Shown here: positions 4,509 to 12,460 of the stretch, one piece after another
How positions within the stretch are numbered: position 1 is the stretch's first letter
How the letters are laid out: every line of letters starts with the position of its first letter
IMG/VR virus record: IMGVR_UViG_2529292874_000020
Reading direction: 5' to 3' (one strand)
From: a virus
Taxonomy: Duplodnaviria > Heunggongvirae > Uroviricota > Caudoviricetes
Length of the DNA: 13,558 nt
Notes under the pieces: generated by a model
What the model saw: only the letters and a program-made list of their open reading frames with translations
Told to the model about the DNA's origin: nothing
Database searches by the model: none
Position numbers and translations under genes: made by a program

Positions 4509-4566
4509 AAAAAGGGCGGCAGAGCAGTCACGGAGTAAAACTGATACCGCCAAACGTCACCAGAAA
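4509..4566 (-). ncRNA. dicF: DicF small RNA (ftsZ-targeting sRNA of the dicB operon)
   Basis: The reverse complement of 4509-4566 reads TTTCTGGTGACGTTTGGCGGTATCAGTTTTACTCCGTGACTGCTCTGCCGCCCTTTTT, which matches the DicF sequence as I recall it, including the GC-rich 3' stem and U-run. Orientation and position (between the ydfC-like gene and dicB) fit. Confidence 0.7.
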
Positions 4567-10470: not shown

Positions 10471-10540
10471 GATGGACTTGATTATACTCATTGCATTGTC
10501 AGAAATAGTTATCCATTAAAGGCTGGCTATTCCAAACAGG

Positions 10541-10568
10541 ATGTTGATTACAAAAATGTAATCAACAT
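10541..10568. promoter_or_regulatory. 28-bp near-perfect palindrome (12-bp arms, AAAA spacer) in the AT-rich leader of the ModA-like gene; candidate operator
   Basis: ATGTTGATTACA-AAAA-TGTAATCAACAT, about 165 bp upstream of the ATG at 10733, followed by a TATAAT hexamer at 10595-10600. Confidence 0.35.
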
Positions 10569-10732
10569 GTAAGGTTTATACTCTTCAATATGCGTATAAT
10601 TTTCCTTATTTTGTTGACTTTAAATAACAAGCTATGCACGAGGTAAAGTCGGATAAGTTTATCTGGATGTAATATATATTATTTGTAGTGTTTATAACTT
10701 TATTTCATGATAACCAATAAAAGGAGTTTTTT

Positions 10733-11491
10733 ATGAGGAACATAATGGCAGGTTTTTTAATATTCCTGTCTTCTGCTGCTTATGCTGATATCAATCTGTA
10801 TGGTCCTGGTGGCCCGCATACAGCCTTGCTTGATGCAGCCAAACTTTATGCCGAAAAAACAGGTATTATAGTGAACGTTCATTACGGCCCACAGAACAAA
10901 TGGAATGAAGATGCCAAAAAAAATGCAGATATCTTGTTTGGCGCATCAGAACAATCTGCTCTGGCTATCATTCGGGACCATAAAGACAGCTTCAGTGAAA
11001 AAGATATTCAGCCTCTTTATCTGCGAAAAAGTATTTTACTGGTAAAGAAAGGTAATCCTAAAAATATCCGGAGTATTGACGACCTGACCAGACCTGGGAT
11101 TGGCGTAATTGTTAATGATGGTGGTGGTACCAGTAATACATCAGGCACTGGCGTCTGGGAAGATATTGCCGGACGTAAAGGGAATATAGAAACTGTCGCC
11201 GCAATCCGAAAAAATATTATTTTATATGCGCCCAATAGCGGAACTGCACGTAAGGCTCTTGAGAATCAGCCTGGAGCAGATGTCTGGATAACCTGGGCTG
11301 ACTGGGCAGCCAGTAATCCAGAAATTGGTGATGTCGTGGAAATAGCGCCAGACTACGTGATATGGCGTGATATGAACATTACAGTACGTCAGGATGCAAA
11401 TGATGAAACCCGTCGATTTGCAGAATGGCTACAAACCGATGAAGCGGCGCCTGCATTCAAAAAATATGGCTGGACCAGGAAAGGCACTTGA
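10733..11491 (+). CDS. Orphan periplasmic substrate-binding protein, ModA/TupA-like (PBP type II fold), with signal peptide
   Basis: 252-aa ORF with AAGGAG RBS. N-terminal signal peptide MRNIMAGFLIFLSSAAYA. The mature protein matches the ModA-type oxyanion-binding layout by eye (ADILFGASEQ vs ModA PADLFISADQ; C-terminal FKKYGW vs ModA FKRYGF). No permease or ATPase genes are adjacent. The leader is AT-rich. Confidence 0.75.
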   Translation: MRNIMAGFLIFLSSAAYADINLYGPGGPHTALLDAAKLYAEKTGIIVNVHYGPQNKWNEDAKKNADILFGASEQSALAIIRDHKDSFSEKDIQPLYLRKSILLVKKGNPKNIRSIDDLTRPGIGVIVNDGGGTSNTSGTGVWEDIAGRKGNIETVAAIRKNIILYAPNSGTARKALENQPGADVWITWADWAASNPEIGDVVEIAPDYVIWRDMNITVRQDANDETRRFAEWLQTDEAAPAFKKYGWTRKGT

Positions 11492-11496
11492 CATCC

Positions 11497-11523
11497 TCGT
11501 CCTTCAGGACGTGGATTCTTTTT
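11497..11523 (+). terminator. Weak hairpin plus T-run after the ModA-like gene
   Basis: CGTCC-ttca-GGACG stem-loop at 11498-11511, followed by a TTCTTTTT tract to 11523. Short stem, so low confidence. Confidence 0.3.
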
Positions 11524-11610
11524 CCGGATGCCGCGCCAGCGGCATGTAGGGGCAGCTCACAAAACGGAAAAAATTGTACGCTAAGCCTCGCCAGGTGAAC
11601 TGAATTCATT

Positions 11611-11634
11611 CCGATATGGGAATTCCCATATCGG
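11611..11634. repeat. Perfect 24-bp palindrome CCGATATGGG-AATT-CCCATATCGG in the hok upstream region
   Basis: Exact inverted repeat read directly from the sequence, embedded in a wider imperfect dyad (GAATTCATT...). Function unknown: mRNA fold-back element or protein-binding site. Confidence 0.5.
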
Positions 11635-11826
11635 GCGAAAACGGTTTGCTGTAACGGCAGAGTTAAGTAGGATTGCTGCGGGTGCTTGAGGCTATCTGCC
11701 TCGGGCATGAACACCAACGGCAGATAGATAAAAGCCCCACCCGACTATAAATCGAAGTGAGGCCCCTATATGCTCGTCACATATAGATTGCCTCTTACGG
11801 ACCGAAAGGTCAAGGAGAAGCAGGCT

Positions 11827-11982
11827 ATGAAGCAGCAAAAGGCGATGTTAATCGCCCTGATCGTCATCTGTTTAATCGTCATAGTGACGGCACTGGTAAC
11901 GAGGAAAGACCTCTGCGAGGTACGAATCCGAACCGGCCAGACGGAGGTCGCTGTCTTCACAGCTTACGAACCTGAGGAGTAA
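11827..11982 (+). CDS. hokD: Hok-family type I toxin, HokD/RelF-like
   Basis: 51-aa ORF MKQQKAMLIALIVICLIVIVTALVTRKDLCEVRIRTGQTEVAVFTAYEPEE with a single transmembrane segment and the conserved Hok C-terminus. AAGGAG RBS 8 nt upstream. The track ORF 11770-11982 is the same frame with a 19-codon upstream extension. Confidence 0.85.
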   Translation: MKQQKAMLIALIVICLIVIVTALVTRKDLCEVRIRTGQTEVAVFTAYEPEE

Positions 11983-12051
11983 GAGACCAGGCGGGGGAGA
12001 AATCCCTCGCCACCTCTGATGTGTCAGGCATCCTCAACGCACCCGCACTTA

Positions 12052-12080
12052 ACCCGCTTCGGCGGGTTTTTGTTTTTATT
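12052..12080 (+). terminator. Rho-independent terminator downstream of hok
   Basis: ACCCGC-TTCG-GCGGGT stem with a UUCG tetraloop at 12052-12067, followed by TTTTTGTTTTTATTTT. Confidence 0.8.
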
Positions 12081-12202
12081 TTCAACGCGTTTGAAGTTCC
12101 GGACGGCGCCGGAATAGAATCAAAAATACTTAAGTAGCGCGCAGGGAGAAGAGGGATGGACCCCGAACAGGGGAGTGCTATTTATCTGGAAGGATTCTGT
12201 TG

Positions 12203-12460
12203 ATGAGAATCGAAGAATTACGTGAAATTTTTAGTGAAGATGGCCTCTATACTGTGCGCGTTGAGAAGGGCGCTATTGTCAGCCACTGCCGTATTAAATG
12301 TTTACAGTCTCAACAAAGGAAGAGTGGAGCTGCGTTAATTCATTTTGTGGATGGGCTTGTGACGGATGGTTTTATTTTGCGTGCAAATGAATTTGTCACA
12401 TCGTTGCCGTCTCTGAAAGAAGCTGGGATTAAGGCTGGTTTTTCTGCTTTTGAAGATTAG
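12203..12460 (+). CDS. Hypothetical 85-aa protein (Rem-like by position next to hokD)
   Basis: ATG at 12203 (track starts on TTG at 12200), with GGAAGGA upstream. It occupies the position rem holds downstream of hokD in Qin. No sequence-level confirmation. Confidence 0.5.
   Translation: MRIEELREIFSEDGLYTVRVEKGAIVSHCRIKCLQSQQRKSGAALIHFVDGLVTDGFILRANEFVTSLPSLKEAGIKAGFSAFED

Follow-up and report, generated by a model that had tools for sequence, protein, structure and literature searches.

The locus described here lies in a 13,558-nt stretch of viral DNA (the window, by which the whole stretch that was analysed is meant). It comprises the toxin gene hok, an upstream mok reading frame in frame with it, a putative sok gene on the opposite strand and the RNA elements tac, ucb, dcb and fbi, and it is preceded by the adhesin gene paa (Table 1). 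A stretch of 721 bp around it is 100% identical to many E. coli O157:H7 chromosomes and, over at least 80% of its length, is carried by 578 of 5426 complete E. coli genomes. Under this match, RefSeq gives the annotations "paa: AcfC family adhesin Paa" and "hokD: type I toxin-antitoxin system toxin HokD". Phage and prophage records named PPompW show 99.9% identity to the same stretch, and their gene order (int, xis, a dicB-type immunity region, replication genes, paa, "gef", rem, ydfU, rusA, Q) places the window in a lambdoid prophage, in its early and nin region. Judging from these matches, the window is an E. coli O157:H7 prophage integrated at ompW. The hok/sok locus itself is already known: RefSeq annotates it, its family is a textbook one, and a paralogue in the same strain background has been characterised experimentally.

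Table 1. Features of the hok locus and of the region between paa and hok (positions in the window).
Feature	Position	Strand	Basis or remark
paa (AcfC-family adhesin Paa/AdfO)	10733-11491	+	ORF; RefSeq and DDBJ annotation; Pfam SBP_bac_11, 5.5e-34
Terminator-like hairpin and T run after paa	11498-11524	+	-13.3 kcal/mol
Tn3-family terminal inverted repeat relic, 37 nt	11549-11585		Interior side faces right
KilA-N gene relic, contains palindrome 11611-11634	11601-11641	-	Reads SPDMGIPISE*IQ (tblastn)
hok promoter (putative)	11645-11673	+	-35 TTTGCT 11645-11650; 17-nt spacer; -10 TAGGAT 11668-11673
Full-length hok mRNA, ~399 nt (predicted)	11680-12078	+	Both ends predicted: Rfam model position 1 at 11680; terminator
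tac, GGGUGCUUGAGG	11680-11691	+	Pairs with 12032-12044 (full-length MFE fold), with 11732-11738 (3'-trimmed)
ucb / anti-SD, AAGCCCCAC	11732-11740	+	Pairs with mok SD (full-length fold), with tac (truncated fold)
Sok-like antisense RNA, ~51-59 nt (predicted)	11778 to ~11728	-	Ends transferred from K-12 sokC, NC_000913 16952-17010
mok SD GAGG	11759-11762	+	Read from sequence; partner changes between full-length and trimmed folds
mok, 70 aa, in frame with hok	11770-11982	+	ORF; K-12 mokC arranged alike
sok promoter (putative)	11784-11813	-	-35 TTGACC 11813-11808; -10 AATCTA/CAATCT 11790-11784
dcb GCCUC	11790-11794	+	Partner is mok SD in centroid fold of trimmed mRNA
GACC-GAAA-GGTC hairpin	11800-11811	+	3' arm overlaps opposite-strand sok -35 box
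hok SD AAGGAG	11812-11817	+	
hok (HokD-type toxin, 51 aa)	11827-11982	+	ORF; RefSeq "hokD"
UACG at Tyr47, TadA A-to-I editing context	11965-11968	+	Read from sequence
GC-rich 3' stem-loop, likely 3' end of processed mRNA	11990-12011	+	Intact here; folds
fbi, CCUCAACGCACCC	12032-12044	+	12 bp and one bulge with tac, MFE fold
Intrinsic hok terminator	12051-12078	+	Stem 12051-12068, then T run

The hok gene, its leader and the antisense gene

The Hok peptide matches the Pfam family HOK_GEF (PF01848) with an E-value of 1.7e-21 and 75.9 bits (cut-off 22) and is identical to K-12 HokD in 50 of 51 residues (98%), the difference being T17I; it would presumably be toxic. The first-pass annotation of this DNA had described an intact peptide followed by a terminator, and both are found as described. 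Upstream, the Rfam model RF01794 (hok/sok leader) matches residues 11680-11829 over its full length (model positions 1-157), with 103.9 bits against a gathering score of 59. This match, one of two Rfam matches in the window, sits on the hok-sense strand and stops at the hok AUG. The family is named "sok", but the match marks the leader and the type of locus, not an antisense transcript as such. A match to isrK at 11991-12072 (24.9 bits, gathering score 50) was treated as a chance resemblance.

A strict sigma-70 consensus scan of 11400-12250 picked up neither the hok nor the sok promoter, and both were therefore placed by homology to annotated K-12 genes. The hok promoter is placed by where it lies with respect to the 5' end of the homologous mRNA and by its -10 box, which is conserved as TAGGAT, TAGAAT or TATAAT in relatives. 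The paa gene ends 335 nt before the hok ATG. This interval had been described as a single leader of about 330 bp; with an mRNA starting at about 11680, as homology suggests, the 5' untranslated region would take up only 147 of the 335 nt.

Folding of the predicted full-length mRNA gives a free energy of -163.8 kcal/mol (z=-6.7). In this fold tac is paired with fbi and the mok SD is held by GCC/CAC at 11734-11740. When the last 50 nt are removed (11680-12028), the 5' end shifts in silico onto 11732-11738, with positions 1-8 of the RNA pairing with positions 53-59, and the centroid structure puts the mok SD on dcb. The predicted folds match the scheme described for plasmid R1, in which tac/fbi pairing gives way to tac/ucb pairing, with dcb as a further element (PMC9841398). 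The first-pass annotation had proposed folding 11540-11830 to look for pairing of the tac/fbi type; the predicted pairing reaches out of that range to its 3' partner. Covariation between tac and fbi is uninformative among the close relatives fetched, since both elements are nearly invariant there, and covariation support comes from the more distant K-12 hokB, which has compensatory GAGA/UCUC in the tac/fbi helix where the window has GAGG/CCUC. An R1-type plasmid copy (L016), truncated upstream by IS150, was used for the mok-hok-fbi part only.

The predicted Sok RNA spans the mok SD and start codon and would begin with nine unpaired nt, followed by a long stem-loop and UUUUAU (-21.1 kcal/mol, z=-4.9). 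The minus strand of the window (ctccTTGACCtttcggtccgtaagaggcAATCTAtatgt followed by GACGAGCAUAUAGGGGCC and onwards) matches K-12 sokC (ctccTTGACCttacggtcagtaagaggcACTCTAcatgt followed by GUUCAGCAUAUAGGAGGCC and onwards) column by column. K-12 sokC is annotated at 16952-17010, overlapping the first nine bases of mokC and continuing upstream. The -35 box, the spacer, the start site and the terminator stem with its U run align with annotated K-12 sokC and sokB; the -10 box is weak. The putative sok -35 box TTGACC corresponds to 11808-11813 read in reverse complement and thus overlaps the 3' arm of the hairpin that the first-pass annotation had correctly located just before the hok ribosome-binding site. 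Its statement that no convincing antisense promoter could be identified agrees with the strict scan, but not with the alignment to sokC. At the level of sequence, a cis-encoded sok gene appears to be present, and it would be expected to be expressed.

Comparison with known hok loci

DNA homology to the K-12 cryptic prophage Qin begins at 11813, 14 nt before the hok ATG, and continues via hok, rem and ydfU to the end of the window, with 85% identity and conserved synteny. Upstream of this point K-12 has relE, where the window has the hok leader. In tblastn searches RelB and RelE show no similarity to the window (best E=1.8), which also speaks against the leader being a decayed 3' end of relE, and relB and relE do not lie directly upstream of hok as in a relBEF operon. 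As the Qin homology begins only at 11813 and the window contains neither RelB nor RelE, K-12 has lost the hok leader to relBE. The K-12 relBE-hokD locus is, on these comparisons, the derived, leaderless arrangement, and the window keeps the complete locus. A description of the window gene as a hokD uncoupled from relBE has the direction backwards.

The K-12 relB-relE-hokD (relF) locus shares with the window its nearly identical Hok, but has no promoter, tac, ucb, mok, sok target or sok promoter, with relBE there instead. Its hokD is co-transcribed with relBE (PMC3598666), which the window does not contain. The derived reading of the K-12 locus agrees with this report and with PMC12214031. According to the latter, which cites Pedersen & Gerdes 1999, the K-12 hok homologs other than hokB are all believed to have been inactivated: insertion elements account for hokA, hokC and hokE, and genomic rearrangement for the one left over, by elimination hokD.

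The K-12 hokC/mokC/sokC locus (gef), unlike K-12 hokD, can be aligned with the window over the whole stretch between the -10 box and the hok stop codon. Its mok shares the frame of hok, again with a 57-nt offset, MokC having 69 amino acids and the window Mok 70, and mokC and hokC have one stop codon in common, where mokB and hokB have separate ones. However, in K-12 an IS186 element located 20 nt past the hokC stop removes fbi and the terminator, which are intact in the window copy; IS186 interrupts the hairpin homologous to the GC-rich 3' stem-loop in K-12 hokC and also in two P1-like plasmids. The K-12 locus lies beside nhaA, the window copy in a prophage. The hok/mok/sok locus of plasmid R1 (parB) has the same order of parts and the same predicted tac/fbi lock and tac/ucb switch, and belongs to the same Rfam and Pfam families. 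Its Hok is only 40% identical, over 45 residues, its mok is out of frame with hok, and it is a plasmid stability locus, whereas the window locus is prophage-borne. The hokW-sokW locus of Sakai prophage Sp5 and the Stx2 phages is a prophage-borne paralogue from the same host lineage with about 86% identical DNA and, likewise, an annotated 70-aa in-frame ORF. Its leader is 22 nt longer, containing an extra hairpin, and its flanking genes differ. [quoted passage not shown]

The spacer between paa and hok

The gene upstream of the spacer had been called ModA-like, which holds at the level of the fold (SBP_bac_11); its identity is that of the AcfC-family adhesin Paa. It is context only, outside the toxin module. 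A module spanning 10529-11551 matches porcine and bovine E. coli plasmids at 86-89%, and its end at 11551 falls exactly at the Tn3-family inverted repeat relic. The relic aligns with a 38-nt inverted repeat located beside tnpR/tnpA on a plasmid of ETEC O169:H41. A search for a partner repeat left of paa found none, and no transposase ORF is present among the ORFs listed for the window's downstream third or among those annotated in a near-identical phage record. The two terminal 38-bp repeats flanking tnpA/tnpR that make up a Tn3-family transposon are not found; with one repeat, no second and no transposase ORF, the element is a solo relic. The 335-nt spacer is a patchwork of the paa terminator, this relic, a 41-nt KilA-N relic, the hok promoter and the 147-nt 5' untranslated region.

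The KilA-N relic contains a perfect palindrome, formed by CCGATATGGGAA and TTCCCATATCGG (12+12 nt, 100% complementary); none of 200 shuffled sequences contained a match, even with three mismatches allowed. This palindrome had been reported as a 24-bp element of the hok leader. Its presence is borne out, but the mRNA start placed by homology is 46 nt further downstream, and the putative hok -35 box follows after about 10-12 nt; being upstream of the promoter, the palindrome is outside the leader. A literature search for the palindrome string returned no papers. The sequence GATATGGGAATTCCCATATCG encodes DMGIPIS, and GAT ATG GGA ATT CCC ATA TCG is read as D-M-G-I-P-I-S, a conserved motif of KilA-N domain proteins. 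Residues 11601-11641 are identical in 36 of 41 nt to an intact KilA-N gene upstream of hok in another contig (L085). Intact homologues match Pfam KilA-N (PF04383) with E-values of 4e-27 (L085) and 2e-22 (L103). In the window, 11 codons survive, with an in-frame stop and no ORF matching the Pfam family, so that we regard the segment as a relic of a KilA-N gene, not a gene.

Six contigs have an intact minus-strand KilA-N gene upstream of the hokD locus, with the 18-nt core of the palindrome 551 nt ahead of the leader motif. Of the 73 hok-adjacent viral contigs with the exact 18-mer, 67 have it at a distance of 70 nt, as in the window. The identity of 36 in 41 nt, with homology to the hok locus resuming right after 11641, points to the loss of about 480 nt. 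Scanning viral contigs with the 18-nt core gave at least 120 loci, 73 upstream of a hok leader and at least 47 in unrelated contexts with GC contents of 21-66%. In at least 27 of the unrelated loci the ORF running through the core is a KilA-N protein (phmmer; Pfam), and the occurrence of the core in such contexts is explained by its encoding the conserved motif. The same count led us to reject the palindrome as a widespread mobile or homing element. It was also rejected as a boundary of the paa cassette; prophages without paa carry it in the same place, and it is therefore not part of paa.

Within intact KilA-N genes the motif shows a particular pattern of codon use. In a codon-agnostic sample of 22 distinct sequences, mostly from enterobacterial phages, third-position entropy is 0 at GAT, CCC, ATA and xCG, and variation in the palindrome is confined to the two central codons (GGA/GGG and ATT/ATC), that is, to its 4-nt centre. 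The codon preceding the motif has 0.27 bits, and its last base is C in all but one of the 22 sequences even though it encodes different amino acids; flanking codons mostly have 1-1.9 bits. This suggests that inside KilA-N genes a hairpin or palindrome with 11-bp arms may be constrained at the nucleotide level.

Mode of action and alternative readings

Taken together, the nin region of this O157:H7 lambdoid prophage at ompW very probably carries a complete type I toxin-antitoxin locus, a hok/mok/sok of the hokD type, most likely working like that of R1. The weak promoter (-10 TAGGAT) would yield the mRNA of about 399 nt, in which the 5' tac would be locked to the 3' fbi and the upstream anti-SD box would hold the mok ribosome-binding site. 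Slow trimming from the 3' end would then remove fbi, upon which tac would capture the anti-SD box and the mok start would be exposed; ribosomes on mok, which is in frame here, would pass through the hok start. As long as the element is present, a short antisense RNA, starting at about 11778 on the minus strand and driven by the TTGACC -35 box in the hairpin before the hok SD, would cover the mok SD and start codon and block the mok step.

That such a locus has a physiological role may be presumed, but structural completeness is no proof of activity, since the chromosomal hokA, hokB and hokC loci are reported not to give post-segregational killing (bioRxiv 10.1101/2025.08.07.668861). The locus could be a structurally complete yet silent passenger, little transcribed and never activated, like the chromosomal hok loci of the K-12 type. 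Besides the report just cited, the weak promoter hexamers fit this alternative, as does the toxin sequence: changing Tyr47 to the conserved Cys requires A-to-I editing, which has been reported for hokD and reaches only 6% in K-12 (PMC12214031). Nevertheless, we consider a silent locus unlikely, as the regulatory elements are all intact, the 3' hairpin is free of the IS186 found in K-12 hokC, the sequence is identical in hundreds of O157 genomes and the paralogue hokW-sokW is active and aids phage release (PMC8621323).

In a different mode of action, the 70-aa in-frame Mok-Hok protein would itself be the toxin, with Sok blocking toxin synthesis directly and not via translational coupling. The mok frame, which the first-pass annotation had correctly described as starting at 11770 in frame with hok, has its own SD and is open through the hok start to 11982, and mok and hok end at a common stop codon. 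Annotators also disagree on the toxin ORF, PGAP choosing the 51-aa hokD and the DDBJ phage record the 70-aa ORF, which it labels "gef". However, hok retains a strong SD (AAGGAG) and an ATG of its own, and sister loci with a near-identical leader have mok shifted by +1 or overlapping the hok ATG as ATGA. Among 47 distinct hokD/hokC-type loci fetched, a sample biased towards carriers of the palindrome, the 57-nt in-frame offset occurs in 37, so that the in-frame arrangement, also present in K-12 mokC, is the majority state and not an unusual one. The offset is 58 nt in six loci, with Mok out of frame and 68 or 55 aa long, 56 nt in three, where the end of mok overlaps the start of hok as ATGA, and 54 nt with an early stop in one. 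Even among in-frame loci, the 19-aa extension is scrambled by paired indels (LPLTDRKVKEKQA in place of LASYVPKGKEKQA), which indicates that constraint acts on the RNA and on the passage of ribosomes, not on the peptide. Direct synthesis of a Mok-Hok toxin is thus rather improbable, and translational coupling is the preferred reading.

The palindrome might be retained as a working cis element for hok, either as a protein site about 57 bp upstream of the start or as a hairpin insulating the locus from read-through from paa and the early operon. Its predicted fold (-20 kcal/mol), the fixed distance of the relic from the leader motif and the arms frozen at synonymous sites in intact KilA-N genes, which imply some DNA- or RNA-level function there, could be taken in this sense. 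Against it, the hairpin has no U tract, and the hok loci of mEp460, Rac and pPE4, among many with the same promoter and leader, do not have the palindrome. Where the relic is present it decays: 13 sister loci lack 1 nt of the left arm, another carries a C-to-T change in an arm, and in one paa-type contig most of the left arm is gone. The fixed distance of 70 nt is accounted for by common descent from a single deletion event. A cis-acting role in hok control is therefore very improbable, and we conclude that the palindrome is, as far as its sequence tells, what is left of a KilA-N gene. The more specific idea that the 22-24-bp palindrome is a functional DNA or RNA element whose window copy ties hok promoter activity or upstream insulation to a phage-encoded factor has, in our estimate, only a very slight chance of being right.

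The view from which the analysis started, of an unusual hokD that escaped from relBE control and acquired a novel leader with an in-frame mok and palindromic control in the 5' untranslated region, possibly without Sok, deserves hardly any credence: the listed features exist and a consensus scan shows no antisense promoter, but K-12 has the truncated form, the in-frame mok prevails, the palindrome precedes the mRNA start placed by homology and is missing from loci with the same leader, and the sok promoter and terminator are homologous to those of K-12 sokC. The features singled out as unusual are either the norm in the clade or unrelated relics.

For discovery, the complete hok/mok/sok locus described here matters little, but it can serve in three modest ways. 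It offers a clean point of comparison for how the K-12 relBE-hokD locus would have looked before relBE replaced the leader. The survey of mok frames finds all three frame relations between mok and hok in one closely related clade, which supports the accepted view that ribosome traffic, and not the Mok peptide, is what counts. Finally, the spacer between paa and hok may be read as a record of how paa arrived in the prophage, beside a Tn3-family end and at the site of a deleted KilA-N gene.

The hok leader, 3' hairpin and editing context

The GC-rich hairpin located directly 3' of hok (11990-12011) is uninterrupted in the window, whereas K-12 hokC and a pair of P1-like plasmids, one of them from Cronobacter, have the equivalent hairpin split at the same spot by IS186 (loci L003, L012 and L014), an insertion that separates hok from fbi and the terminator. 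Most of the other hokD and hokW leaders from phages contain an additional hairpin, roughly 22 nt long (…GTTAACATTACGCGTCCTGCAAGACGCTTAAC…), downstream of the ucb box and ahead of the mok Shine-Dalgarno sequence; when compared with loci L004-L014, both the window leader (at 11739-11745) and that of K-12 hokC are without it. Codon Tyr47 of hok lies in the TadA A-to-I editing motif (see table), and in K-12 hokC, hokD and hokE the equivalent tyrosine is reported to be edited to cysteine, in hokD at a level of 6% (PMC12214031).

Features of the hok locus, its upstream flank and the prophage immunity region
Feature	Coordinates	Strand	Remarks
DicF antisense sRNA gene, full-length	4514-4565	-	Rfam RF00039, 76.7 bits (gathering score 48)
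paa module (gene and AT-rich upstream region)	10529-11551		86-89% identity to porcine/bovine E. coli plasmids
Tn3-family terminal inverted repeat relic, solo, 37 nt	11549-11585		interior side toward hok
UACG context at hok codon Tyr47	11965-11968		TadA A-to-I editing motif

The prophage setting and the paa module

The DicF gene is consistent with a dicA/dicC/dicB-type immunity region in the window prophage. Upstream of paa, the GC content falls to 29% (10500-10730). Since the paa module is common to porcine and bovine E. coli plasmids, paa looks like a plasmid-derived insertion in the nin region of the prophage. The Tn3-family repeat is positioned at the exact right end of this module, and the same repeat flanks tnpR/tnpA in plasmids of ETEC O169:H41; a search for a second inverted repeat as its partner found none. 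In the paa-less relatives L007-L009, a hydrophobic ORF of 34 amino acids (around 2400-2510) ends 9 nt before the palindrome; this ORF is without counterpart in the window, where the repeat relic and paa take its place.

The palindrome within KilA-N genes

In intact KilA-N genes (L140-L219), compared with 11611-11634 of the window, the palindrome is formed by the 21 nt coding for DMGIPIS. The exact 18-mer is found too in KilA-N genes of giant-virus MAGs, which are very AT-rich. Synonymous sites of the arms show no variation, with GAT, CCC, ATA and xCG invariant, and 21 of 22 sequences have C as the last base of the codon preceding the stretch, although the amino acids differ. The flanking codons are saturated, and variation within the palindrome is confined to the central 4 nt. 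Together, the invariant arms, saturated flanks and variable centre suggest a DNA- or RNA-level element inside KilA-N genes.
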